A program made the translations under genes and the position numbers. Of a stretch of DNA of 54,047 bases, positions 2,562 to 45,700 are shown piece by piece. The notes under the pieces are model-generated. The model had not been told where the DNA came from. It made no database searches and was given only the letters and a program-made list of their open reading frames with translations. Numbering within the stretch: the first letter of the stretch is position 1; every line of letters starts with the position of its first letter. Source of the DNA: Girardia tigrina (Eukaryota); assembly GCA_001938485.1 (NCBI GenBank), contig MQRK01176777.1:6165-60211 (forward strand), read 5' to 3'.

Positions 2562-2785
2562 TACATTGCAATAATATACGTGATTTAATAAATTATTTAA
2601 TATTTAATAAATTAGAAATACTTAAAATTTTCGAATCTTTAAAAAACTTTTTAAAATTTAACACCAATAAGTTATAAAATTGCTGTTATCGTTCAATTCT
2701 GAGAATATGTTGATTAAACAAATCTTATTTCTATTTGAAATTTGTTTCATTTAGATCTCTTCCAAAGCAAAATGAATGTAAGAAT

Positions 2786-4510
2786 ATGACTCAATCAGAG
2801 GCCAGTGTATATTTATCCCAAGTTATAAGTTTATTGGAAGCCAATAAACAGTCAACAGATAGTAGTTTATTTTATGAACTGATATTGAGAATCTCTAAGT
2901 CTTATTACGATTATTTCCACAAATTTATCTCTGAAATATGTCATGTGTTAATTAAGAGAAACATTTGTCAATTATTGTGCTATTATTTGAAAAATGTGAC
3001 TATTTCAAATTTTGAAAAAGATAAAATTGTGACCATTATTCAGAATATCTTAATTAATTTTTCCGATCACTCGGACGATTTNGCGAAATCTGTTTTATCG
3101 TCGGAGATCTTGCATTCTCTGATCGATGCCTTCTTCCTTGTTGATTCATCGGGAGACATCAGTGATCCCGAAACTAAGAAATTCCTCTACCGATCAGTTG
3201 TTATCATCAACAATATTGCTCGTAATCTCTGTCATAATATCAATTACAGAGTCCCGGGAATCATAAACGCTTTGGAGAGATATATTAAATTAAATTGTGA
3301 TGATGAATTAGGATTGATTTCTGTTCTGACGTTATCGTATCTGGTGGAAGAGTCACAGATCGGTACACTCGACGAAGGTTTAGGAATTATCAAGAATTTG
3401 ATAAAACATATTCGATATATAAATGATACGAATGAAAGATCAAATGGATTCACTCTAAAGGAATTGGTTCATGGATTGCGGTGCATCTCGTGCAATGACA
3501 ATATGAAGATTAGAATCGATGAAGAAGGAGGAATACCGATACTGATTGATATGATACGAAATAAGGAAGACGATGTTGTTGAATCGGCATTAGGGACGAT
3601 TGAGAATTTATGTTTTAATGAAAAAATTAAACAGAAATTAAAAAACGAATATTCGATTGAAGAAGTAATTAAACCTTTTGCAAATATTCATTGTGAAAAG
3701 ATTAGAAGAAACTGCAATGGTATTTTATGGAAAGTTCAAAATCGAGCTGAATCTTTTCACAAAACAGAGACTGAAAAGAAATGTTCGAACAAGAAATACT
3801 CTTTCGATGTTTTTCTGAGTTACGCTTGGGCGAATAAATCAAACATTCGCCAAATATATCAGAAGCTAAAGTCATATAAATTTCGAGTTTGGATCGATGA
3901 AGAACAAATGAAAGACTGTTCAATTGAATCCATGGCAAACGGAATTGAGAACTCGAGATTATTCATCTTGGCAAGCTCAAGTTCATACAGAAAAAGCGAG
4001 AATTGTCGACACGAGGCCGAATACGCATTTCAAATTAAGAAACCGATAATCCCGATCGTTGTGGAGCTGAAATATAAACCGAGCAGTTGGCTAGGGTTCA
4101 TTATGGGCACCAAGGTTTATTATGAATTCAGTGAACGAAGAGACACTGAAATAGAAATTATTAAATTACGAAAATCAATTCAGTTAAATTTAGAGAATGA
4201 TATATCGGAGGAAAAAGATGAGGTTAAAAGAGAAGCGAATATGAAAACTTATGAATATCATTATTCTGGTGAAAAATTGATTGAAAATTGGAGTACTAAG
4301 GACGTTTCCAAATGGCTTGAAGATTGCCAAATGGGATATTTAAAGACGCATTTAGCCGGTGTTGATGGCCGCTTATTGCAAATTATGATTGATATGAGAT
4401 TAAAATCCGCAGATTATTTCAATAAAAGTTTGAGAAACGAATTTGGAATGAAATTTCTGGATGTGATTAAGTTCCATAAAGCTCTTAATGATTTGAGTTT
4501 GCTCAACTAA
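2786..4510 (+). CDS. ARM-repeat / TIR (TIR_2-type) / C-terminal SAM-like protein, copy A
   Basis: Open frame 2735-4510. First in-frame ATG is 2786; a splice acceptor TTTCATTTAG near 2754 suggests an upstream exon, so the start is uncertain. ARM repeats (EEGGIPILIDMIRN...ESALGTIENLCFNE, NCNGILWKV); TIR from ~3800 (FDVFLSYAW, VWID, SENCRHEAEYA, KPIIPI); SAM-like end (WSTKDVSKWLEDCQM...VDGRLL...FGMK). One ambiguous N at 3082. Confidence 0.9.
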   Translation: MTQSEASVYLSQVISLLEANKQSTDSSLFYELILRISKSYYDYFHKFISEICHVLIKRNICQLLCYYLKNVTISNFEKDKIVTIIQNILINFSDHSDDXAKSVLSSEILHSLIDAFFLVDSSGDISDPETKKFLYRSVVIINNIARNLCHNINYRVPGIINALERYIKLNCDDELGLISVLTLSYLVEESQIGTLDEGLGIIKNLIKHIRYINDTNERSNGFTLKELVHGLRCISCNDNMKIRIDEEGGIPILIDMIRNKEDDVVESALGTIENLCFNEKIKQKLKNEYSIEEVIKPFANIHCEKIRRNCNGILWKVQNRAESFHKTETEKKCSNKKYSFDVFLSYAWANKSNIRQIYQKLKSYKFRVWIDEEQMKDCSIESMANGIENSRLFILASSSSYRKSENCRHEAEYAFQIKKPIIPIVVELKYKPSSWLGFIMGTKVYYEFSERRDTEIEIIKLRKSIQLNLENDISEEKDEVKREANMKTYEYHYSGEKLIENWSTKDVSKWLEDCQMGYLKTHLAGVDGRLLQIMIDMRLKSADYFNKSLRNEFGMKFLDVIKFHKALNDLSLLN

Positions 4511-16370: not shown

Positions 16371-16950
16371 CCCTCAAAATAGGGCAATAAAAATAATGTT
16401 ATATACAGCTGGGGTTATATGTGACCCCAATAGGAAACTGGTGATCTACAGTTGTTTTAGTGCAAAATAGTCCCGTCTCTGATTTGAGAACAATTTAGTT
16501 GCACATTGAATAACCCTTGCCATGGTCTATACAAAAGATCAACAACATTTCAAAAGAAGACAAATGCTTTTATTAATTGCAGTTCAAACACTTCACTATA
16601 CAATGGGACTTCTACGCACCTCTTTGACAAGATATGTACCGATCCGGCCACTTTCCGTCTTGTCCCGAGAGCAGAAAAACAGTGGCTTCTTTTGGTTCCT
16701 CTCACCACTTCTGCCGCGACATGACTCAAAAAGGCAGATAACATTGATTTTGACAGCTTTCTCAAGAAGAGTCGTCGTCGATGGGGTACATTCTTCTGAT
16801 ACTGCCGATGAACATGCACAAACAGCACTATAATATTATACGCCATGATGTCCATCAGGTTGCAGGCGAATGCAAGTGGCAACCTCAATGCTTTCCTTTT
16901 GCAACTATAATGGCACTCTAGTTGGTCCATAGTGTCCATGCCCCCTTATA
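16371..16950 (-). mobile_element. piggyBac 3' fragment with terminus
   Basis: TTAA|CCCT terminus at 16367-16374. ORF 16550-16939 MDTMDQLECHYSCKRK...PLAFACNLMDIMAYN...RRRLFLRKL, with a decayed Cys-rich C-terminal domain. Confidence 0.85.
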
Positions 16951-17089
16951 ATGGTTGTAGTCCAGAAGGACTTGAGGCTTTCGATGAGTCTCAGGTGAAA
17001 GATCGCTGATGTTGACATGAAGAGTGGACATCACACTTTTAAAAAATATACGGTTGACTTAAAATGAAATATTGAATTAAAAAACATTT

Positions 17090-17626
17090 TTGAAACATCA
17101 GAATCAAAAATAGATTTTTATAATACATCACAAATGAGAAAGTTTCGAATTTGAGAAATCTGTCACAAAACGTTTTTAGCGCTTTTGGTTCAACTTACAT
17201 CTGCAAATCGTTCGAAAATGAAAATGACTAAACACAAAACAAGGTCAAACATAACGGACGCTAACATCCGAACCCAATTACGATGTGCAAATCCCATAAA
17301 TAGAAATCAATTTGCAAGAGCTAAGTGGAAGGATGAACAAATATCGTACTAGTAAAATAAATGTTTTAACACTTCATTTTTTTATTTTATTTATATTTAT
17401 ATATTTCTTTACAATGTGCATTTATTATTATTATATAATCTATGTTAATGTGTAGGGATATTAGTAAACACAAATATAATAACTCATTATGTTTCATTTT
17501 CTCACTTAAAAAATATATGTAGTGGGTGAAAATATTATATGTAGATATATACTTTTAAATGCAGCCCGCGGAGTTATTATGGTTTTCCAAAGCGGCCCGT
17601 AAGATCATTTTGGTTGGTCCCCACTG
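17090..17626 (+). mobile_element. hAT (GTF2IRD2/SPIN/Buster-like) 3' fragment with terminus
   Basis: Frameshifted (F)GSTYICKS..MKMTKHKTRSNITDANIRTQLRCA; subterminal GCAGCCCG/GCGGCCCG; ends ...TTGGTCCCCACTG followed by CCTTAGCC. Confidence 0.8.
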
Positions 17627-17876
17627 CCTTAGCCATTTAATGAGCTGTATAATGACTTCATAAATATATATTTTGGAAGAAATTTTTGATAACACCAGAT
17701 CACAAAGCTTAAGAATATATATTCAATCCAAACCAATCATTGTCAAAAACTACATCCTGCATGATTCAAACATGGGCTTTAGACTTAAGTTCATTCAACT
17801 ATGAGATTGAAAGCTGTGCAGGAAGAAAAATTGATCAAGCGAAATATAAGTAGGGAAAAATGTATGTTCTGCACCA

Positions 17877-18330
17877 CCTCCCCCCGGGGGGAGGGTAGGG
17901 GGGGTAGCGCGTTGCCATCGCAACAGTTACTACGGCAACTAGTCAGGTTACCATAGAAACGGTCGCGATCACCCTAGTAACGGTTCCGGTTACCATGGGA
18001 ACGGTCACGATCACCCCTAGCAATGGTTGCGGTTACCATAGCAACGGTTCCGGCTCACTTGGAAACGCTTCTCATTGGTTCCCGGTACCATAGCGACGTT
18101 CGCGATCACCATAGGAACGGTTCCGTTAACCTTAGTAACCGTCGCGATCACCATAGCCTAGGCAGCAACGGTTCCGATCACCCTAACAGTGGTAACCAAG
18201 GTCTTAGTTATCATAGTAACGGTAACCAAGGGAATTTTTTTATTAGCAATGGATATGTGATTCAAGGTGGTTGTAACCATGGTAACGGTTACCGTATCCA
18301 TAGTAACCGTGACCATTTCCCTAGCAACCG
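17877..18330. repeat. Palindrome-capped degenerate tandem array (~21-bp period) of RFX X-box-like 14-mers
   Basis: Perfect 18-bp palindrome CCTCCCCCCGGGGGGAGG at 17877-17894, then roughly 18 GTTRCCATRGYAAC-like units (e.g. 17911, 17926, 17947, 17989, 18032), often separated by GGTTCCG or GGTCGCG. Confidence 0.85.
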
Positions 18331-18483
18331 AAGAATAAAGTTTTAATCGATCACTGCACAGTGCCCAGATGTGATAATCAATATTTTTAAAATGCACATT
18401 CTAATGTGCTAGCACAGTGCTTTTTAAGTTGCACATGTGCAAAAGTGTAAAAATTAATACATAAATTTTTTTAAAAGTACTAG

Positions 18484-18636
18484 TGTCAAAATCAATGTTA
18501 TCTGCCTTTTTGAATCATGTCGCGGCAGAAGTGGTGAGAGAAACTAAAAGAAGCCACTGTTTTTCTGCTCTCGGGACAAGACGGAAAGTGGCCGGATCGG
18601 TACATATCTTGTCAAAGAGGTGCGTGGAAGTCCCAT
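18484..18636 (+). repeat. Inverted 153-bp copy of piggyBac segment 16603-16755
   Basis: Reverse complement of 16603-16755 with only a few substitutions; both ends are abrupt. Confidence 0.95.
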
Positions 18637-18922
18637 GCACATTTTGATTCTCTATCTGAATGTGCAATTAGAAATTTTATATATTGATTACTTTTCTCTA
18701 TAATTGGCATAATGTGCAAATTTACACAAAATGCACATCGATTTTAGATGCACAAGGAAGCAGAATATCAAAAAAAGTGCTGATGTACTTGAATAGTAAT
18801 CCATATATAGATTCCACATCAACTATTTCAAAAAGGTGTTGAAATATCGATATTTTCGAACATTTCTTAAATTCTCAAAAATCGTGCCTAGAGCTGTTTT
18901 TTCGTATATATATGAAACCCCT

Positions 18923-20071
18923 GTGATATATATGTATGTTGTTTACCATCAAACAATACCTCATGAATCGTTTAATGTATTTAGTGATCAATCACAAGTT
19001 CCATGGTTACCGTAAGTAAGATACATAGCACACTGATCACCTCTCCTTGCGATCGTGCTTCCTCGTTTCCTTGATCATTTTCATACCTTTGTCTCTTATC
19101 TGGGAAGACCATTTTAGTTAACTTTCCTTGGTTTAATCTAGTCTCTTCGTATTCGCTGTCTTCATTGCATTTATCAATTTCCGCAACTGGGTATTGACGA
19201 TTTTGGGGTCTATTATGGTATCCTGCATTATTTTTTTCTTCCAATCGCTGTTTCTACTGTACTGTTCTCTTTCCTTAAATCTATTCTTGTTGAGATAACA
19301 TTGAGTTCTATAATTGCCATTTCTGTTGCAATGAGTACACTTCACATTTGGGCAATCTCATCTTATGTGGCCTTCTTCTTGACATGCATAACATTTTACA
19401 GTTCTGTAATAATTGTTTTTCGGTTTGAATCCATTATTTTTTTGGTTCCTATTGTTGTGTTCGTAATATCTATGTGTGGTTCTTTCGTTGTGTACAGCTT
19501 TGCGTCTAGTTACGGCTTTCCAATTATCTTGTTTATTTACCCTCGTCTATGCTGCCACTGTTTCCTCACATTCCATTTTACGTAGTTCGTACATATTGAT
19601 AACTACTCTTTTTATATCTTTGGTTTCAGTTGTTCCTCTCAGTTTTAATTCTTTTTTGATTTCATAACTGTCAACCATATTTAAACAGGCAAGGTTGAGT
19701 AGTTCTTTTTTAGACAATTTTTCTTTTGTTAGTATATTCACAAGTTCTTCTGCTTTTTTGTATGTTTCTTCTGGGTTGGAGGATCCTCACCGTAAGTTTA
19801 CCAACTCCTTTACTGTATCCAGAATGGATTTTTCTTTAGTAAATGCAGCTTTCAATTTTTCTTTGTAATTTTTACAGCCCATCTCTGAATATTTTTTTAT
19901 TGCCGATGGTGTCATAAACACAGTCACCATCACTATTTTCCTCTCTTCTGCTATACCCATAATGTCGGAATAGCGTTCGAAATTATCAATGAAATCTTCC
20001 AAATCCGATTCTGATCCATTTAATTTTTCACAGTTCATAATGTTCGTTGTCACATGAGCCGTAGTCGCCAT
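18923..20071 (-). mobile_element. Ty3/gypsy-like gag pseudogene with PBS-like and PPT/LTR-like signals, no pol
   Basis: Broken frames 19787-20134 (EKLNGSESDLEDFIDNFERY...MVTVFMTPSA), 19547-19741 and 19133-19345 (decayed knuckle CTHCNRNGNYRTQC). TGGCGACTACGG (PBS-like) starts at 20070 on minus; AAGGAGAGG|TG...CA spans ~19046-18923. Confidence 0.7.
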
Positions 20072-20454
20072 TATATGTAAAAACGACATGCAAAAACTCC
20101 TATTATACTTAAAACATGCATAGACATTATACATACCACTTACACAATCACCAAAAGTACCTGAGCCTAGACATCACCTATCAAAGTACCTCGATACCGT
20201 AACCATGAGGCATAGCCTTTTAAGATTATATATAAAAACAATCTAAAACACCTTAGCAACCATCACTATTACCTTTAAAACTATGAAAAACACCTTAAAA
20301 AACACCTTAAAAATCATTGAAAACATGTAAAAACCACCAAAATTACAGAAAAAAAGTGCAAAAAAACAATACTACACTCATCTGAGACAATTACAGTGTT
20401 GAGGAGTTTAAAAGAGACATTCAGCTGGAGAACCTGTCAACAACGGATGCGAAG

Positions 20455-21230
20455 ATGGAGAAGATCTACAGACTCAAGAAGATCAGCAGGAGCGGAAACG
20501 AGAAGACACTAAGACTAGTGTTGCCCCGTTTAAAAGAGCACAGTTGCCCGATGGATGCCTGTTAGAAGCAGTATGCAGAGGTGAAGGAGCTAAACAGGCA
20601 TCTCAGAAGAGACCATGAAGGAGCAGATCCCATCCCGAGGAAACAGAGAGAAAAGAAAGCCCAGCCGCGACAGAAAAAAAGGAGTCTACAAATGCCTGCA
20701 GTGCCCCAAAGAATACAAAACTGCAGGTTTCCTGAAAATCCATATCCAGAAGAATCACAGAGAAGAGTCAGTACAACCAAACGCCCAGCAAGAAGATAAT
20801 TTGGTCATCGTGAGAGAGGAAGAGCCGACAACAATTCAATCCAACCCCCAGTTACCGGAAGCAACTATGGGCACGCCGAGGATCCAGACAGAAGACAACA
20901 CTACATACACTCGTGAAGAATCGCCGCACCGACAATACCGATTGCCAGCCAATTATACAAAAGCAAAAGGACATTTCCAGTGCCCATTCAGAGGATGTTA
21001 CGCGTCCACCGTAACCGCCAAAGGTATGTATGGCCATGGCACCAAATTCCATGGCTGGTCTTTTGCAACTGGAAAACCGATCGCTCGCTGGCAGAAGGAC
21101 ACTGACCCCGTAGGAGGCCTATCGGGGGGCCCTTAAGGACTTTAGTTTGGGTGGACCCTCTAAAGAGCCTTAGGCTCAATACCATTGAAAGAGATGGGAG
21201 GCCCACTACACTCATCTGCCTAGACTGCAC
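20455..21230 (+). pseudogene. Multi-C2H2 zinc-finger ORF, probably the N-terminus of a restriction-like-endonuclease non-LTR retrotransposon (R2/NeSL/CRE type), disrupted
   Basis: CPMDAC*KQYAEVKELNRHLRRDH; frameshift; CLQCPKEYKTAGFLKIHIQKNH; CPFRGCYASTVTAKGMYGHGTKFH; a possible fourth finger starting ICLDC is truncated at ~21230. No RT seen, so the family is inferred. Confidence 0.55.
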
Positions 21231-21320
21231 ATGTGCTAATCAATACTGCACATGTGCTAATCAATATTGAACATGTTCTAATCAATAATGCACATGTGTT
21301 AATCAATACTTCACATGTGT
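21226..21320. repeat. 21-bp tandem repeat x4.5 containing the palindrome GCACATGTGC
   Basis: TGCACATGTGCTAATCAATAC units start at 21226, 21247, 21268, 21289 and 21310. Confidence 0.95.
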
Positions 21321-22599
21321 AAGTGTGCAAAATCAATAAGTTCACAATTGTGCAAAGTGTACAATATTTATGTTTTTATATAATAAAGCTAAGCATAGGT
21401 CGAAGGTAGTAAGATATCGAAAATCTGTTTAAACAAATATATAGTAACTTATATATGAATAGTCACATTCAATATCAACATTTTTGAAAAAATCGATACG
21501 AAGTGCTTTTTCGAATATATGCACATTATGTGTGCAAATATTATATTATAGATATGTATTATATTATGATATTATACTATGTTATCAACCAATATCGTAT
21601 CAACCATTCAAAACATGACCATATCAAGGCGATATCGTCATGCATTCATCGTGTCAATGTATTGTATCCATCATGTCAACGTATTGCATCCATCATGTCA
21701 ACGTATTGAACTCATCGTATCAATACACAGCTGAACATGTAAAAAATACAGAAAATGCTTATTAATATATAAAGTACTAAAAGAACTACCTTATCAAACA
21801 TTACCATCATGCTATCATTCTTCAAATTTACCATATGAAACATCAAAAATACCTTATCAACCATATCATCAACCATCACATTTACCTTAACAATCATAAA
21901 AATCCCCATATCAACTATCCAATATACCTTATCAAACATACCATCAACCATCAAAATTTACCACGGGTTTATTTGAAAAACCTGCCGTCACTGCAATTTC
22001 GGAGAGTCATCTGTTTACACAGGTATCTACTGGGCGGTTTCGTTTTCTCTAATGTATCTCGTTTCATTTCAGACAAGTCATACGGTCTGTGAATCATTGC
22101 ATCGGGACTTCTACGTGGACTTATAAGTAATTAATTTTGGTAATGAATTATAATTCTATCTTTCCTTTATTAGTTGATTTAAGGGTCATACGGCTTCTAG
22201 CGGTGGTAACTTGGGACGGAGTGTAGTCTAATTACGACGTACTCCACTACTATGCCTTGTTCGGCTTCTCAGAATTTCGGGTGAGCTCTTGTGGCTTTTC
22301 AGAGCTCTGGCTTATTACTTTTTCATTATGCAGCTCACAACCATCTTCGGAGGGTCTCTTCATTCTCAGGTACAGGAACTCATGCTTATTGGCTCTTTCC
22401 CGCTGTTCGCCGTTCTACATGTACATGGAATTCACTTAAACGTAACGGTAATAGTCGAGTTAGATCATTTCCCACTTCACTATAACGGTTTCATGCATGT
22501 GGGATGGTGTCGATATCAGGAAGGGTTAATGTCATTTGTATCGTAACACGCGTCTCTAAATATTGGAGGAAAGTAGATACGGGTAATTATTAACTTGAC

Positions 22600-22900: not shown

Positions 22901-24708
22901 ACGATTTGTGTTAAATAATGACGATAGCGCTTCACCTTTTTTCTGGTTAGAAGGTCAAATAAAGGACATACAAAAAAAATCAACTTATTCGAAATATCAC
23001 AAAAATTTATTGATTAGTAAAACAATTGCTATTTCAGTGATATTTATTATTTACATTTATTTTTTATATAGATAAGTAAGATATGTGATTTTTGATGTAA
23101 ATAATATTAGTATTTTTATGATAATAAAGATTCTTTTAGTTATTAGATTTGTTATTTAATTAAAAGTGGTTACTACATAAATAAATAAAGATTCAAATTT
23201 ATCGTTGAGTTAATTTTTTATGTAACAGAAATTTTCCAAGGAACAAGAAAGAAGTTACGTTCTTCTAAAAGGTGGCATAGAATACAATCACATGGAGGAA
23301 ATGTCACTACTGTTGGTACACAACTGTGACAAACACGAGATGCTAACGAAAAAAAATCAAAAAAATGTTTAAGATTATGAGTTAGGATTACATCAATGAG
23401 CTATATTATATTTGGTGCGATAAATTGTGCGTTATCGACGAAGAAAAGAATCTTACAGTTGATGAAGCGCATCTTCGCATTCAGCTATGTGAGCTATTTA
23501 GAGAACAGTGTTTGTCATTCACGTTTTCTTATTAGATCGCCAGAATTAATAATAGTAGTTATTCTTAGGTAAAGGGTTTAGCTTAGGGTAAATATTTGTT
23601 TTAATATTATTTGATAAAAAATTTCATTAATAAATTTCCACATGTTTTATTTGATTTTACGATACTATTATGACAGAGTTACATGTCTCTGTTTGATAGC
23701 ATTCTCAATGAATGTAATATTTTATGTAGATAAGGGATTTTCTATTGTGTGTTCTCGAGAAAACGGTCCGAGATGCAGGATGAAGAGGTTTTCGAGATAG
23801 GGAAGTGTAAATCATAGTTCGTATCTGCATTTTTGTCTCTTTGTCCGTGATTTATTCGTATTTTGCAATCGATTTTTCTTCAACTTCCCATGATTTGATT
23901 GAGCTGAAATTTTACTCAAATGTGAAATTCATCTGACAATAAATGTATAAATGAAAAAATTACTATATTAATGATAAATGAATAATGTCTCAATTTGATC
24001 GTTTTATTTTTTCTGCTCCGTCTCTGTATGTTAGGTATTGCTAAAACCGAAATCGAGATATTTATATTATTTTATTATATGTATGTGTAAGTCTGCAATA
24101 ACACGTTTTTGTCTGCAGTTGCAGCAATGTTGCAATTAATCAATTCCCGATCGCTAAATTGTTGAAATGGATTTTTTTATTTTCCTTTATTTAATATTTT
24201 ATTCTTAAAGGAATAAGTGAATAAATGTCTATATACAACTTGTTTTCAAAAATCTAATAAATATTATTGACTTTCAGTCGCCAGACACTATTACTTAATC
24301 AATATTTTGTCAAAACTGTAAGAATAATATTTTTGCATCAGAAAATCAATTATAAATTTGGATATCCTAGAAAATATCACAACAGTATATTAAAAAATAA
24401 TTTTTATTTTATTAATTCATTAATATTTTTGAGCTCTCTTACTACTTTCTAAAAGTATGAATACGAATGAATGGAATAGATTGAAATCATACGCCAATAA
24501 AGTGTTAGAATATATAAGGTTACGCCTCGTATTTAAAAATTTTTGTTTGAGAGTAGCGACATCAATTAATTTGAACTTATTTATTGTTTCGGTTGTGTTC
24601 GTTTTTCATTATCCTTGTCATTTTACAGTTTTATTTAGAGTCGCAAATTTCTGACGACTTAAATTGTTCAAATTATTGCTTTCTGAGATTTTATCAAAAT
24701 TTAATATA

Positions 24709-27234: not shown

Positions 27235-29023
27235 TTAATTTAACAAAGCCAGATTGTTTAGAGCATCATGAAATTTAACAACATCCAGAAATTTCATTCC
27301 AAATTCGTTTCTCAAACTTTTATTGAAATAATCTGTGGATTTTAATCTCATATCAATCATAATTTGCAGTAAGCGGCCATCAACACCGGCTAAATGCGTC
27401 TTTAAATATCCCATTTGGCAATCTTCAAGCCATTTGGAAACGTCTATAGCACTCCATTTATTAATAGTATTCATATCACTCTCTTTATTCTCTTCTTTTT
27501 GAATCTCATCTTCTTCCGATATATCATTTTCTAAATGTAACTGAATTGATTTTCGTAATTTAATAATTTCTATTTCAGTGTCTCTTCGTTCACTGAATTC
27601 ATAGTAAACCTTGGTGCCCATAATGAACCCTAGCCAACTGCTCGGTTTATATTTCAGCTCTACAACGATCGGGATTATCGGTTTCTTGATCTTTAGTGCG
27701 TATTCGGCCTCGAGTCGACAATTCTCGCTTTTTCTGTATGAACTTGAGCTTGCCAAGATGAATAATCTCGAGTTCTCGATTCCGTTTGCCATTGCTTCGA
27801 TTGATGAATCTTTCATTTGTTCTTCATCGATCCAAACTCGAAATTTATACGACTTTAACTTCTGATATATTTGACGAATGTTTGATTTATTCGCCCAAGC
27901 GTAACTCAGAAAAACATCGAAAGAGTATTTCTTGTTCGAACATTTCTTTTCAGTCTCTGTTTTGTGAAATGATTCAGCTCGATTTTGAACTTTCCATAAA
28001 ATACCATTGCAGTTTCTTCTAATCTTTTCACAATGAATATTTGCAAAAGGTTTAATTACTTCTTCAATCGAATATTCGTCTTTTAATTTCTGTTTAATTT
28101 TTTCATTAAAACATAAATTCTCAATCGTCCCTAAGGCCGATTCAACAACATCGTCTTCCTTATTTCGTATCATATCAATCAGTATCGGTATTCCTCCTTC
28201 TTCATCGATTCTAATCTTCATATTGTCATTACACGAGATGCACCGCAATCCATGAACCAATTCCTTTAGAGTGAATCCATTTGATCTTTCATTCATATCA
28301 TTTATATATCGAATATGTTTTATCAAATTCTTGATAATTCCTAAACCTTCGTCGAGTGTACCGATCTGTGACTCTTCCACCAGATACGATAACGTCAGAA
28401 CAGAAATCAATCCTAATTCATCATCACAATTTAATTTAATATATCTCTCCAAAGCGTTTATGATTCCCGGGACTCTGTAATTGATATTATGACAGAGATT
28501 ACGAGCAATATTATTGATGATAACTACTGATCGGTAGAGGAATTTCTTAGTTTCGGGATCACTGATGTCTCCCGATGAATCAACAAGGAAGAAGGCATCG
28601 ATCAGAGAATGCAAGATCTCCGACGATAAAACAGATTTCGCGAAATCGTCCGAGTGATCGGACAAATTAATCACGATCGTTTGAATCAATCTGACCGTTT
28701 CATCCGTAACTAACTCTTTCCTATTGACATTCATTAGATAAATAGTATTCAGTCTCGAGCACAATTCTCTCTCGATACAAGTCTCGCAAATTGCGTCGAT
28801 GAATGTATCATAGAAATCGTAATACCAATCTTTAATCGTCGTCAAAATTCTCTGTGATTTGTCGGTATTTCTGTGAGCAAGAGAGTCGTCTAAGGCATTT
28901 AGTAATCGATTGATATAATCAACGAACTCGTGTCGTTCGTAGTGACACAATTCGTATTGATTAAAGATCGATCTGAAAGAAAATGAAAATACGATTGAAA
29001 TAAAGTTGTTATTCTTACTCCAT
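27235..29023 (-). CDS. ARM-repeat / TIR / SAM-like protein, copy B (exons 29023-29019, 28972-27235)
   Basis: Same domains as copy A (SENCRLEAEYA in TIR). Probable true start is ATGGA|gtaaga...tttcag|ATCG with a 46-nt intron (29018-28973), giving MESIFNQYEL... Confidence 0.9.
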
Positions 29024-29999
29024 CGAGAAAAATATTTAGAGAGAAAATGTTCGTAAATTATCTTTTTTACATATTTCACTTTTATATTGATAAATATTGA
29101 TTCAATATTATTAAATCGATTAGTTCTATTAAAAAAACAATATTTATAATTAGTGAATGTTTATTTTGTACGGCTATCAAATATTATTGATATATTAAAA
29201 CAATTGGTTTTATTAAAATGGGTATAAGTAAGAAATGTTTCTTTTGTGTAACCAATTATTTTCATTTTCTCATTTATAATGGCATTAAATTACAGTTTTT
29301 GGAACTAACATTTGAAATCATACAAAAATGTTCTTAACAAAAGAGATTGCTAGATTTGATTTACTAAGCTCAGAAAATCTATAGGTTAGGCAGAAAATCG
29401 CTAAATGAGATGTACCGATGATATTAACTCATTCAAAATTAGAACAATTGAGTAATTGTCTAATGATTACAATGTACTAAGGCTTTTATAAACTACTAAG
29501 CAAAGTATATATAATATAATAAGAATTAGTGAACGGTTGAAGTTTATAAATCATAAGCATTTTATCGAAAAATTATGAAATGATAAAAATAAAATAACGA
29601 ACTTTTATTAGAAAAAAATATATTAAAAGCATAACCAGAAATGATAACAGAACAGGTACAGCACTGGCATGGTTGCGACACTCCGGCATTTGATGGCGGA
29701 CTTCGGGTCTTGGGAAACAAACTATTGATACCTCACTGAAAGTCACAATCATTAACTGGTCAATTGTGTAGCCTTTGTCGGCTCTCTCGGCACTCTTGGA
29801 CATGCGCGGCCAGTTTCCCGTAGTCCAACTTCCAACATCTGACTCAGAACAACAACAATTCAAAAATAAACAAACATACAGGAAACAATCCAATAAACAA
29901 TCCAATCAAAAAATAATTTTAAAAATTAATCAATCGTATAACAATCAAACAATTTTAATTTTAACATCATTCTCGTACTTCACAGATTGAAACATGTTC

Positions 30000-31648: not shown

Positions 31649-32383
31649 ATTTTTGAAAAAAAACATTAGTTCTTTAAAATATGTTAAATTCAAAAAGTTA
31701 AAATCGTTTACTAAAAATATTATTAAAATTTATAATTATAAAACTTTCAATTGATTAATGTTTAAAAAGTAATCCCATTAAATTAATTTCATTAGATTTA
31801 AATAATTAATCAATAACATATCAATCCCATCTGAGTAGGAGAGTCACCATTTTAAACAGCATAAAAACAGCATTCCGAATTTTCCCTCACACAAATTTTT
31901 AATTTTTTAAATTATGTTTTAAAAATATACTTTTTAAAGTTTTTAAATAATTTAAATTTCGATCAACAAAATCAAAATTAACTAACTCCTCATAGTAGGG
32001 AATCTACGAAAAAATTACGAAAGAAAATTATTATTTATTTAATTTATAAACTCATTTATGAAAAAGCGCAAAACATTTTTCGGTAAAAGACTAATTATTC
32101 AATTGATTCATGTATTGTCATCGAAATCACACAGCTGTATAAAATTTCTGCTCAATCAATTTTTCATCATGAAAAGTAGATAGAATATCGTTTACAAAAT
32201 TTGTAGCGGACAAGTAAACAAACAAACTAAAAGAAATAAATTAATAGATGGGTGGTAAAAAGAGACATTCCTGGTCGATAGCAGGAAATCTCGATGTAAC
32301 CATTTTATTACGATTTCAAAAAATTTAATTTTATTGGGTGATAATTCTAATATTTTTATTTGTTCAAAAATTCATGGGAAATA
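31649..32383 (+). repeat. Dispersed direct duplication; second copy 42766-43826
   Basis: Highly similar AT-rich sequence in both places (e.g. CAATCCCATCTGAGTAGGAGAGTCACCAT; CTGGTCGATAGCAGGAAATCTCGATGTAACC). The second copy has ~330 extra bp at ~42980-43310. Confidence 0.92.
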
Positions 32384-36571: not shown

Positions 36572-37284
36572 TAGTGGTGGCAAATTTTTTTCATAGATTT
36601 TATTTTTCAAAATATTTTTTTATAAATCGTTTATATTTATTTATTGGTATATTAAAATGATACATTTTAAGTCTTATAAATTTTCTAATAATATCACTTT
36701 AATAAAATAATTTAATAAAATAATTAGATTTATATATTTTAGTACAATTTCAAGTGGCAAAATTTTTTCATAAATGTTAGTTTATTTATTATTTCCGAAG
36801 TAATTATAATCAAAATGGTAGGTATTCAAAGGAATTTAGAGAATTAATCAAGAAGCATAAAAAAGATGGTAGAAGTTATCAAGAAATAAGTGATGAATTT
36901 CACATTTCAATATCAACTGCTTGTGACTACGAAATGAAAGTCAATAAACGCAAAACCGGCCCTAAAAATAAAATTACAGAGGTTATCTTTGATTATGAAG
37001 AGATATATAAGGAGAGAGAACTATATTGGAAATAAAGTAACTTCAACGAAAATATTGAAAGACATATCTATTGATGTATCAAGAAGAACAGTGATTAACT
37101 GGTTAAATAAGACAAATTATAAATATTGCAATGGCGTACAGAAAGTAATTCTAAGTAAGAAACATAAATCTGAAAGGTTGCTTAAAATTTCAGACTGGAT
37201 TCATGAAAGTATACCTGGGAATCCATTGTATTTTCAGATGAAATGAGTTTAATCTGGATGTCCCAGATAACTGGAAAAATTTGT

Positions 37285-37339
<55 letters not shown>

Positions 37340-38045
37340 AGGTATACATATACAAAAGAACGGATGACCATTGACAGACATTCACAGCAATGCGGTGGTG
37401 GAGGGTTCATGATATTGGGTATGTTGATGCCAAATGGCCTTATATCAGTGAAAGTACTCCGAGAGAAGGTAAACTCAAGCAGCTATATAAAATTGTTGGA
37501 GACCTACGCTGTGCCAATAATGAATTTAAATTTAAAACATAATTACTATTTTGTTCAAGACAATTGTAGTATTCACGTATCAAGAATTTCTAAAGAATTT
37601 TTAGAAAAACAGTCATTTCAAGTAGTAAATTGGTCTTCAAGATCTCCAGATTTGAACCTGATGGAGAATGTATGGCGGATGTTGTCTTTTATAGTGTATG
37701 ATTCTGGTCAAGCTAGAAATATCAAAGATCTGGAGAAGAAGATTGTCAAGGCAGTCCTAACGATATATTCTGAAAAAATCGATATTACTAAAGGTCTATA
37801 TTGCTCTTTTCACAAGAGACTAACTTCTGCAATGATGCACAAGGGAAATATATATAAGTCAAATGAATAAATGTATTATTTGTATCTTTTATGAAAAAAA
37901 TTTGCCACTTGAAATTGTACTAAAATATATAAATCTAATTATTTTATTAAAACAAGCATGTGTATTAAGTGATATTATTAGAAAATTTATAAGGCTTAAA
38001 ATGTATCATTTTAAAATACCAATGAATAAATATAAACGATTTATA
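36572..38045 (+). mobile_element. Tc1-like DD34E transposon with long IR/DR-type TIRs, disrupted
   Basis: Inverted repeats 36621-36773 / 37888-38045 with GTGGCAAA..TTTTTTCATA direct repeats at ~36577 and ~36754. FSDE, GGGGFMILG, and FVQDNCSIH with 34 residues to the E of SPDLNLMENVW. Confidence 0.92.
37289..37334. repeat. (TA)n microsatellite inside the Tc1 transposase
   Basis: About 23 uninterrupted AT units. Confidence 0.95.
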
Positions 38046-38258
38046 GTCCGGTTTGAAGACTACATCTTACGATTCTAATGGAGATGTGGTTTAGGATTGT
38101 TGAAAATCGAATAATTTATTTTGTTTGAATATTCAGCAGTTTTCGGGAAACACGCGTGTATTTTAAATTGGAAGTCCAATAAATATTATTTTTGATTTCT
38201 AAGTTTTTTTATTATTTTCGAATTCAGAAAGAATAAAAATGTAACTAAAAAATAAATA

Positions 38259-39446
38259 CAGGTCTGTCCAGAAAGTCTTGACCAATTTATAGACAAGTAA
38301 AAGATAAGCATTTATTGTTATTTTCATCATCATCTCTAATGTGTTCAAAATATTGTCCATTGTGAGCCACGCACTACTCCCATCGTTCTGGGAGTTTTCT
38401 AATTCTTTTGGTGAAGAAACTGTGTGGTTTTTCTTCAATCCAACACTCCAACAACACTTGAACTTCTTCCGAGGAGTTGTAATTTCGTCCTCTGAGGGCT
38501 TTTTTCATTGGAGATAATAAATAAAAATCGGAGGGACCGAGGTCAGGAGAGTATGGTGGATGGAGCAATACACTGAACCCTATTTCCTGCACCTTATTTA
38601 CTGTTTTGTTGGCTGTGTGGGGTCTGGCGTTATCGTGAAGGTAAGTAATTTGTTGAGTTCCTCCTCGCATAAGCCGCCTCCGCTTTTTTTGTATTGCAGC
38701 AACAAGACGATCCAGCTGTTGACAGTAGGTATCTGCTGTAATTGTCTGTCCATGAGGGATAACTTCCATTAGCAATACACCTTTTCTCTTCCAAAAATCT
38801 GGAATCATATGCTTTCTGGGTGTAAGCACACGACGTACTTCAACTGGAGGATTATATCCTTCTCCTCGCCGAGAATGATGATTTTGTGAGCCTCGATTAT
38901 CCCAACATATCCAGAATCCATCCATGGTTACCAATTGTCCAGGAAAATCAAAAGCCGATCGATTATACAGGTACCTTTTCTCCATCTGAAATAGATGATT
39001 TCGAGCTGTCTCCGGGAAAATTACCAACTCAAGTGCTATGGAGCGACATGTGCTATATTTGTCCAAATCCAGCTGCTGCAATATAGCGTCATTAATGTTC
39101 AATGACGGGCTTCGAGGGCACTGTTGATCTTCCACATTAAAATCGCTGTTGTTCAACTGTGTTATCCATCGACAAAAAGTGCTTTCACTAACAGCACCAC
39201 TTCCAAGGGCTGCATTCATCTCTTACATATAGCGGGGGATTCAAATTACGTTTCCAGCAGTAATATATCATCATTCGAATATCACGTTGACTCAAATTAA
39301 TTTTAACGGAATGAAAATGCAACAATAGGAAAAATTGATTATTTCCGAATTATATTTTACAAAATCATTCACATTTGTATATGTTATCTATACTGTAAAT
39401 ATCATAGACATTTATCAATGTGTTCAAAACTTTCTGGACAGACCTG
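38259..39446 (-). mobile_element. mariner DD34D transposon, both TIRs present, internally deleted
   Basis: TA-CAGGTCTGTCCAGAAAGT...ACTTTCTGGACAGACCTG-TA. ORF 38374-39219 has VTMDGFWI and LHDNARPH with 34 residues to the D of HPPYSPDLGPSDFYL. Confidence 0.93.
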
Positions 39447-42700: not shown

Positions 42701-45700
42701 TGGGGCAAGATTAATATTAACTTTTAATTTCTCAAAATTTTATTGGATAAAAAATCATTAAGTAATTTTTGAAAATAAACATTAGTTTTTTAAAATATTT
42801 TAAATTCAAAAAGTTAAAATCGTTTACTAAAAATATTATTAAAATTTATAATTATAAAACTTTTAATTAATTAATGTTTAAAAATTAATCCCATTAAATT
42901 AATTTCAATAGATTTAAATAATTAACCAATAACATATCAATCCCATCTGAGTAGGAGAGTCACCATTCTAAACAGCATACAAACTGGTTTGTGAATGAAA
43001 ACTAGCACACAAAATTTTATGAATAATGCCTGATCTTCTTTGAGACAATCACAAGTACAGAAAAAATACTATCTACAAATATAACAAAACAGCAACCTCA
43101 ACCGTATTCCACCACCTTCACCTACAGTAAACAATACTTATCGCAACCATACATAAACGTCTTCAATTGAGTAAATTCAGTTAGCTACACTATTACAACA
43201 TAATCAATAGACTGAAATCTACATAAAAGCACAAAAGAATCAATATTTTTTTAATAAATGGAATGGTTGTTTTGGGTTCGTGATCAAAATTCGAAGTCAT
43301 AATTTGTTACTACATTCCGAATTTTCCATCACACAAATTTTTAATTTTTTAAATTATGTTTTAAAAATATACTTTTTAAAGTTTTTAAATAATTTAAATT
43401 TCGATCAACAAAATCAAAATTAACTAACTCCTCATAGTTGGGAATCTACGAAAAAAATTACGAAAGAAAATTATTATTTATTTAATTTATAAACTCATTT
43501 ATGAAAAAGCGCAAAACATTTTTTGGAAAAAGACTAATTATTCAATTGATTCATGTATTGTCGTCGAAATCACACAGCTGTACGAAATTTCTGCTCAATC
43601 AATTTTTCATCATGGAAAGTAGATAGAAAATCGTTTACAAAATTTGTAGCGGACAAGCAAACAAACAAACTAGAAGAAATAAGTTAATAGATGGGTGGTA
43701 AAAAGAGACGTACCTGGTCGATAGCAGGAAATCTCGATGTAACCATTTTATTACGATTTCAAAAAATTTAATTTTATTGAGTGATAATTCTAATTTTTTT
43801 ATTTGTTCAAAAATTCATTGGAAATATTTAATATTGAGGCTGTTTTACTTATCCCACTTTGGATATTAATAAATAGGTTAAAGTGTCTAAATATCAATGA
43901 TTTACAATACAACTTCTCATGATATAAATCAAAAGTTGTCTGAAGTATAGAAAAATCGTCTTTTGAAATTGATAATGTTCTATCTTTTTCAACATTTGCA
44001 GTGATATGATAACCTTATTCGATCTACTCGATTGTGAGTGTTCACTAATCTGTGTTTTGAGATGATTATTTTTCTATCCAAGTGGGAGTATTGACACTCA
44101 TGAAATTAAAATTTTTCACGAGATATAATTGTTTTCGATGTAATTGTAAGGGCAAGTCTCTCCCTTTAGTTGTCAGACACTATTTTAACATTCCCGATAT
44201 TCTTGTAAATGATATTCTTAAATATTCTAAATTCTTTTGAAAATAGAATTTCTATAATCCTAATGCGCTTCCCCTCGTTCTTCTTTATATGAGTGGAGAT
44301 TCTGTTGCGAAAACTATAATAACAATCTCTAGACTTATTAAAATAAAATCAAATTAATCAGATAATCATATTTCAAATGTATTTAATTTATACCACTTGA
44401 ATTTTTTTAAGGAACTAGCCATTTTTTAACCGAAGAAACACTTATTATTTACAATTTAGAAATACTCATAATAAATCTAAAAATTTAAATTAAACAATCT
44501 TTGTATGCGTTTGCTGTGTTTATTCATAGACGTAGGGCAACTTTGCTCCTACAAAACAGTTTCCTCATAACAAATTGACTTTTTTTGCATTGATGATTTA
44601 AATTGATTATAAGTTTTTTTTGAGTAAATTATATTATTTGTGAACAAAAGAAATTATAAGAATACTAGAGAATAAAAGATCATCTAATATTTATAATGCA
44701 GTGTTACTCTATTGTTACATTCTTTATAGCTGAAAACACTGTTTAAGGAGTAAACTTTATGAAAATTTGATCTTGCACATATATTACTATAAGTGGCCCA
44801 TGAAAAAATTAATTAAATAATAATTGCTCCTTATTTGTATTACGGTAGTTTAAAAAATAAATATTTTCTCACGAAATCCCGTATAAAATAGACTATTTAT
44901 TAATTTGCTTTATTAATTATTCTATAACATATTTATTTTATTTAAGTACATTTTTGTCTGGCCAGTTTTTAAAAACAAGATGCCACATTGATAAGACCAT
45001 TTAGAAAATTATTATTAGAACATTTATTAATATGTATATATGTATATATATATATATATATGTGTATATTAATTAAAATCTAAAGTCAAAATAAAAATCT
45101 AGTTATTAAAAATGTCTAGTTACAATGAAAATATCTCATTTCATTTATGTGTCGAATTAAAAAAAATATGTCAAATAAAAAAATGTTTCGAATTAAAAAA
45201 TATGTGTCGAATAGTCTTGTGTCATATTGCCTGGTCACCAAATGAGCACAGCGAGTATAAAATTGTATCTAGTATATAAAGCGCATCTAGTCTATTCTCA
45301 ATCAGGTTTATTCCAACCCAGATATGTTTATACATAACTTTTTGATCAATAAAAATGTGGCTTGTATGCATAGAAATTATCAATAGAGACAAAGGCAATA
45401 GGGAGAAATATGAAAATTTGTATTACAACTTAAACCGAATGATGTAGGATTCGAGATGCTTGAATACAAAGAGATAGTTTTGAGTGCCATATACAATCAC
45501 GACTGAAAAGGTTACATTAATATCCTTTGAAATGCACATTTTCTGGTAATCAAAGTAGAGTTGCGTTTAAGTTTATAAAGGTAACTTTTAAAAATGTACA
45601 CAAAACATTTAATTTACAGCTGGTGTAAATTTTCCTAATTCTATTTATTGCTTACTTCTGAATAAATCGTTTGATTGGTTTTATACCAGCTTCTTTGACA

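Follow-up and report, generated by a model that had tools for sequence, protein, structure and literature searches.

Organization of the element in the window

The window analysed here is a 54,047-nt stretch of Girardia tigrina DNA (contig MQRK01176777.1, positions 6,165–60,211, forward strand), and coordinates refer to it unless a contig or locus is named. The initial annotation had inferred the terminus or origin-enhancer of a mobile element or endogenous DNA virus from 17877 onward, where a perfect 18-bp palindrome is followed by a phased array of short repeats. The terminus is real, but the true left end lies 28 bp to the left of the palindrome, at 17849 (AGTAG...), and the array region (17877–18330) is only the inner part of a terminus whose element runs on to ~21963. 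The outermost sequence (17849–17863, plus strand) consists of AGTAG, a G-run, an A-run and TG, and the six host bases before it (17843–17848) would be the left copy of a target-site duplication, the partner end being absent from the window copy. No right-type terminus was found in the window, which extends to the contig end.

Inward from the terminus lie a sub-terminal ATG-N4-TTC motif (17860–17869, plus strand), the C-run/G-run palindrome (17877–17894), a G6-A-G3-TA-G7 run (17886–17904, plus strand) and about 17 X-box-like 14-mers in 21-bp units (17911–18328, plus strand). Seven MYB-type YAACKG sites overlap this array, and one CCAAT is present within it in reverse orientation (18074). The remainder is an inverted arm on the plus strand, of which segments a1 (18346–18491), a2 (18635–19027) and a3 (20071–20384) are common to other copies, while segment b (21205–21722) is the inner arm part and continues to 21963 as the start of an internal tandem array (21723–21963) that marks a gene-less subfamily. 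Three later insertions break the arm: part of an inverted copy of nearby DNA (18492–18634, minus strand), another dispersed repeat (19028–20070) whose 128-aa frame has no Pfam match, and a segment between 14-bp direct repeats (20385–21204; repeats at 20371–20384 and 21205–21218). An unrelated repeat cuts off the tandem array at ~21963. The window copy is thus a truncated member of the gene-less subfamily. No Rfam matches were obtained for positions 16500–22500.

Several other features of the window were recorded. The inverted copy inside the arm spans 153 bp at 97% identity (16603–16755 and 18484–18636) and arose either by a local template switch or as a small insertion. The insertion at 20385–21218, counted with its direct repeat, contains a 180-aa frame whose spacing looks C2H2-like by eye and for which Pfam gives no match. 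Two intronless frames with ARM and TIR_2 domains (2714–4510, plus strand; 27235–29160, minus strand) form a 95% inverted duplicate 23 kb apart, and we take them to resemble SARM1/TIR-1-type proteins. DDE_3/Transposase_1 frames lie at 37289–39222, with inverted repeats at 36621–36779 and 37883–38045, and direct duplicates of 94–99% identity occur ~11 kb apart at 31649–32308 and 42765–43751.

The terminal array matches the RFX X-box

The consensus of the X-box, the site of the cilia and sperm regulator RFX, is given in the excerpt of the source cited as GTNRCC-N0-3-RGYAAC (PMC10530576). Positions 17877–18330 contain 3 exact sites, 10 with at most one mismatch and 17 with at most two, compared with means of 0.025, 0.31 and 2.55 (maxima 1, 2 and 8) in 200 dinucleotide shuffles of the same region, so that the likeness to RFX sites proposed in the initial annotation is far above chance. 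The whole window holds only 16 sites with at most one mismatch, 11 of them between 17911 and 18294. The five imperfect 14-bp palindromes quoted at the outset are all present, and the ~21-bp spacing is borne out, with most sites 21 bp apart and TRF periods of 21 and 43. The alternating spacers described with them occur in the first few units but are not kept in the rest of the array.

Across 105 termini we recovered 959 units with a profile seeded on the window units, which biases the conservation figures that follow towards higher values. Of these units, 73% have an exact right half-site (RGYAAC) and 36% an exact left half-site, and just 28% carry a full exact X-box; at least one exact X-box is nonetheless kept in 77 of the 80 longer termini. 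Where the consensus is degenerate, the units mostly stay with the permitted bases (98% for R, 91% for Y), but transitions are in any case the most frequent type of change. The first near-exact site lies at a median of 56 nt from the element end. Exactly 21 bp separates the units in 462 of 854 spacings; unit number and order vary widely among copies, and other spacings of 30, 31, 37 and 51 bp occur. The most constant stretch of the unit also forms YAACKG, the MYB consensus in the portion of PMC2797782 cited, in 61% of units, and CCAAT is present in 64 of the 80 longer termini. The host genome contains RFX DNA-binding domains (6 PF02257 matches on 5 contigs, three identical in score). No match to the terminus or unit patterns was found in the viral and metagenome contigs searched.

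The palindrome and the G-run are both present as first described. Their interpretation as a conserved hairpin or G-quadruplex cap is not supported. A C-run followed by a G-run (C4..G4) recurs in 65 of the 105 termini, but its outer pairs show no covariation (1.295 observed, 1.285 shuffled). A G-quadruplex as a family feature was rejected, the four-G-tract pattern occurring in 1 of 105 termini per strand and the run being private to the window copy. When the 497-nt end was folded as single-stranded DNA, it did no better than shuffles (z −1.16). The ATG-N4-TTC motif between the end and the array is found in 82 of the 105 termini; other copies have an inverted version of it ~1.4 kb further in, immediately ahead of a TATA-like box (at least 32 distinct internal sites), and this internal version is missing from the window copy. 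We infer that ATG-N4-TTC is a candidate site for a protein of the element itself.

The terminus belongs to a high-copy family with 6-bp target-site duplications

The host genome assembly (G000) is fragmented, with 1.43 Gb in 255,254 contigs. A copy search returned 6,894 first-look candidates, 40 of which were scored, and revealed a sharp left border at AGTAG, equivalent to window position 17849, that is common to copies. One exact 15-nt form of the terminus occurs 3,510 times genome-wide (control 5), and two exact 15-nt forms together occur 14,394 times (control 6), counts that duplicated contigs may inflate and that miss variant forms. X-box ends have a genome-wide density of 10 per Mb. AGTAGG is found in 76 of the 105 termini and AGTAGT in 3, the termini having been picked with an AGTAGG-type pattern; the Polinton end motif is (AGT)2 or (AG)3.

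Eight distinct copies retain both ends and show inverted termini, AGTAG...CTACT. The 6-bp target-site duplication is perfect in five of them (L031, L037, L212, C184433 and C225650), matches at 5 of 6 positions in C248235, where CG has changed to CA, and at 4 of 6 in L060 and L217. The terminal inverted repeats (TIRs) range from ~210 bp (L037) to arms of 1.5–2 kb, in keeping with Polinton TIRs of ~100–1500 bp. Complete copies without a polymerase gene measure 1.5–3.2 kb. In one pPolB copy whose duplication is perfect, the right end is reduced to only ~14 nt, a deletion that could postdate insertion; another copy has a right end with a short array. The youngest copies break contigs inside the array. 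With a conserved end, TIRs and a 6-bp duplication, the genome-wide search upholds the proposal that the locus is a mobile-element terminus.

Longer copies carry a single protein-primed DNA polymerase

In longer copies, inverted arms of 1.5–2 kb surround a single gene for a protein-primed DNA polymerase (pPolB), which substantiates the suggested relation to endogenous DNA viruses. Two complete copies of this kind measure 7.7 and 8.3 kb. The host genome yielded at least 93 pPolB matches from 2,257 candidates; the family associated with the X-box ends, with 3,139 candidates, sits directly inside arm sequence of the window type and carries the Pfam domains PF03175 and PF02945, with an endonuclease VII/HNH insertion. 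The arm, a 0.9-kb leader, pPolB, a 0.6-kb trailer and the opposite, inverted arm form one unbroken stretch of homology. By the cut-offs used, an inward-pointing arm was present on at least one side at 23 of 29 pPolB loci, on both sides at 12 and on neither at 6; the checked flanks of these six end in other insertions or contig ends, mostly with the same leader or trailer. Conversely, when the inner end of the arm served as query, 26 of the 30 loci retrieved lead into the pPolB cassette, 2 into the gene-less tandem array and 2 are too short, in a search whose query held ~30 bp of trailer and so favoured the pPolB side. A terminus-like site inside pPolB turned out to be a real, shortened right end that a single copy among 20 aligned possesses. 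A 437-aa ubiquitin C-terminal hydrolase frame (L141:7-1317) immediately precedes one pPolB copy, and nine sequencing runs contained small shares (0.07–0.18) of one pPolB copy.

Genes for virion formation and integration were sought around these cassettes. With probes from resident Polintons, tblastn gave no match to a DJR capsid, ATPase or putative protease in 53 stretches (385 kb), a search in which a very divergent capsid could be missed. No Polinton-type integrase was found at the 29 pPolB loci or the 30 inner-arm loci, and the capsid, ATPase and protease probes were likewise negative at both sets; integrase probes gave only distant matches (24–32%) in the 53 stretches, and the one that was checked is part of a retroelement with RNase H plus integrase.

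All examined pPolB copies have stops or breaks somewhere. Pairwise dN/dS among 21 copies (210 pairs) has a median of 0.26 (range 0.16–0.72) at a median dS of 0.29, compared with 0.69 ± 0.13 in a neutral simulation, which indicates that the polymerase was needed while the pPolB lineages diverged. Twelve pPolBs of the family form one clade (100/100) among insect Polinton/adintovirus pPolBs, to which they are 41–52% identical, as against 32–42% identity to five pPolBs of full Polintons resident in the same genome; these five are included in the tree, while eight further full-Polinton stretches had no alignable match and were left out.

Full Polintons reside in the same genome

Polinton/Maverick hallmarks include long TIRs, AGT-type ends and 6-bp duplications, as described in the excerpt of PMC8097293. 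Full Polintons are abundant in the G. tigrina genome (127 capsid matches), where they encode capsid, A32-type ATPase, integrase and pPolB and end in AGTAGT; of three checked for 6-bp duplications, two were perfect and one matched at 5 of 6 positions. They share with the X-box family the first five bases of the end and the duplication length.

No inward-pointing X-box TIR was present on any of the 24 inspected contigs that bear capsid or full-Polinton genes; 21 of these contigs belong to the set of 127 capsid matches. Six X-box ends near full Polintons point outward, and four interrupt the Polinton body; the idea that the outward ends are inner borders of full-Polinton TIRs was rejected, these four being insertions into the body. 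The four insertions lie at different places (L124:2139, L126:2722, L173:8869 and L166:8820), and X-box ends are not clearly denser beside full Polintons than across the genome.

Two further observations concern the resident Polintons themselves. Several of their ends resemble double-ended cassettes of ~100–330 bp, with AGTAGT...ACTACT at both borders of the same TIR (L152:3222-3434, L182:4040-4259, L157:6615-6805, L159:8107-8272, L164:3484-3582, L188:6791-6969, G000:C188483:20607-20934, and C254979:6768-7100 and 23159-23491), and similar units occur at C108177 and C233250. Their integrase (L152:715-2019 and siblings) has an N-terminal phospholipase A2-like domain (PF08398).

Probable origin of the family and possible role of the array

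The array in the window is probably the inner part of the left TIR of a Polinton-derived family whose longer members are polymerase-only and likely borrow the integrase of resident Polintons. The family is best read as an integrase-less, capsid-less Polinton satellite together with its gene-less derivatives. We infer, with reasonable confidence, a life cycle of protein-primed replication by its own pPolB, integration in trans and passive spread of gene-less copies. Under such a scheme, a linear form of the satellite, excised or extrachromosomal, would be copied by the satellite's pPolB with protein priming at both ends, and the integrase of a resident full Polinton would insert this form in trans. 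The helper integrase may read only the outermost bases (compare the copy with a ~14-nt right end and a perfect duplication), and its recognition of the satellite would rest on the five bases shared between AGTAGG in the satellite and (AGT)2 in the resident elements. Gene-less copies, such as the window copy, would likewise be mobilised in trans. The array, with its first site ~56 nt from the end, could serve as a promoter-enhancer or an auxiliary origin to which RFX-type, MYB or NF-Y factors of the host bind, a role that we put forward tentatively and by analogy.

A different history would be that a full Polinton with X-box TIRs exists or once existed, the pPolB-only and gene-less copies being internal deletions of it, or that the family represents a single segment of a segmented virus, with the same TIR on the other segments. 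The interior of young copies is unassembled, an adintovirus PolB is among the closest pPolB relatives, and segmented PolB-bearing viruses with common terminal repeats are described in the portion of PMC8363768 cited (Vesanto virus). This history nevertheless appears improbable, as copies that differ by dS up to ~0.39, with a dN/dS of 0.26, agree in where the arms meet pPolB at either side, and as an inward-pointing X-box TIR occurs at 0 of 24 full-Polinton contigs, where six X-box ends point outward and four lie within the body. Because the assembly is fragmented and the youngest copies are broken inside the array, a master copy with its own integrase may still exist. We consider it very improbable that the family is a cut-and-paste foldback or MITE family with an unrelated transposase that captured pPolB as cargo: foldback elements typically have long TIRs with internal repeats and several subfamilies are gene-less, yet cargo would decay neutrally while pPolB is under purifying selection, and the end motif and duplication length match those of resident Polintons. 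The chance that the locus is the 3' end of a Helitron or Helentron is slighter still. C/G hairpin-like runs near one end and an internal minisatellite do resemble non-autonomous Helentrons, but to our knowledge Helitrons have neither TIRs nor target-site duplications, and here the same inverted terminus stands at both ends, with 6-bp duplications and a pPolB interior in place of Rep/helicase. Helitron/Helentron identity was rejected on these grounds, as was Ginger1/2 identity, given the AGTAG-type ends and 6-bp duplications of the family; Ginger elements have TGT ends and 4-bp duplications in the excerpt of PMC2836005.

The last alternative competes with the proposed role of the array only, not with the Polinton origin. 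The array may have no host-factor function. It would then be a minisatellite that grew by slippage or recombination as the ends were replicated, or a group of binding sites for a protein of the element, and its X-box likeness would have arisen by chance. This is entirely plausible, if just short of probable: unit number, order and spacing vary widely, one right end works with ~14 nt and another with a short array, and the resident full Polintons manage without an array. The retention of an exact X-box in nearly all longer termini speaks against it, as do the co-occurrence of CCAAT, the prevalence of the exact 21-bp spacing and the confinement of changes to allowed bases, with the reservation about transitions made above.

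Polintons are defined by polymerase plus integrase, and their replication, integration and choice of cell are almost untested. A high-copy family with a selected polymerase and no integrase or virion genes would be a natural case of replication uncoupled from integration, would point to trans-acting helpers and would narrow down which end sequence the integrase reads. If RFX, MYB or NF-Y bind the array, it would offer a first host-factor handle on Polinton origins, analogous to adenovirus NF-I, and would supply mobile regulatory sites for cilia and germ line in large numbers. A bolder picture, which we regard as doubtful in its entirety, is that of a linear-plasmid-like Polinton satellite that has only its own polymerase, takes helper integrase (and perhaps capsids) by way of an end motif of five bases, is more numerous than its helper by orders of magnitude, uses a phased RFX/MYB/NF-Y array at its origin to fire in ciliated or germ-line cells, and so scatters thousands of X-box clusters through the host genome.

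Comparison with known systems

Repbase has non-autonomous Polinton entries, and the novelty of the satellite may be lower if the family is among them. In the literature searched by title and start of abstract, which took in neither Repbase nor subscription papers and supplements, no high-copy polymerase-only Polinton family was found, nor was an RFX array in a Polinton TIR. What is new here is the link of pPolB to an X-box-ended repeat, partial Polintons and HNH-bearing pPolBs being already known.

Published systems are compared as far as the excerpts of the cited sources describe them. With Polintons/Mavericks, including adintoviruses (PMC8097293, 10.1101/2023.08.22.554363), the satellite shares pPolB, long TIRs, the 6-bp duplication and AGT-type ends, and its HNH/endonuclease VII insertion in pPolB has counterparts in some nematode and oomycete Polintons. 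Unlike Polintons, it lacks integrase, capsids, ATPase and protease, measures ~8 kb as opposed to 13–25 kb, ends in AGTAGG and not in (AGT)2, is present in thousands of copies and carries a phased X-box array in its TIR. It falls outside Polinton membership on integrase, virion genes and size, but is Polinton-like at its ends and probably in replication. In a planarian, Polintons are repressed by piRNAs and desilenced on differentiation (PMC8532177).

Partial Polintons have been reported from C. elegans (pPolB beside a TIR without integrase, 10 loci; 10.1101/2024.01.15.575659) and from butterflies (mobile polB-less Polintons; 10.1101/2025.02.07.637071), and integrase-less PLVs have been found integrated (PMC11296320). 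Like the satellite, these lack core genes, some are mobile or integrated, and trans-acting helpers have been proposed. They differ in being remnants or in having kept virion genes and lost polB, whereas the satellite has the reverse set, a fixed layout and purifying selection. Linear pPolB plasmids, transpovirons and capsid-less pMVREs, including fungal pPolB elements (PMC13215967), and the PolB segments of Vesanto virus (PMC8363768) are, like the satellite, small TIR-bounded replicons with a polymerase and no virion genes; in the sources cited they are organellar, fungal, giant-virus-associated or free viral segments, whereas the satellite is inserted in animal chromosomes with Polinton-type duplications. 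In the adenovirus inverted terminal repeat, NF-I and NF-III/Oct-1 sites follow a core origin (PMC6410123). As at the satellite end, motifs for host transcription factors stand behind a conserved core at the terminus of a protein-primed replicon. The factors differ, and the satellite has a long 21-bp-phased array in place of single sites; the likeness is only a works-like analogy.
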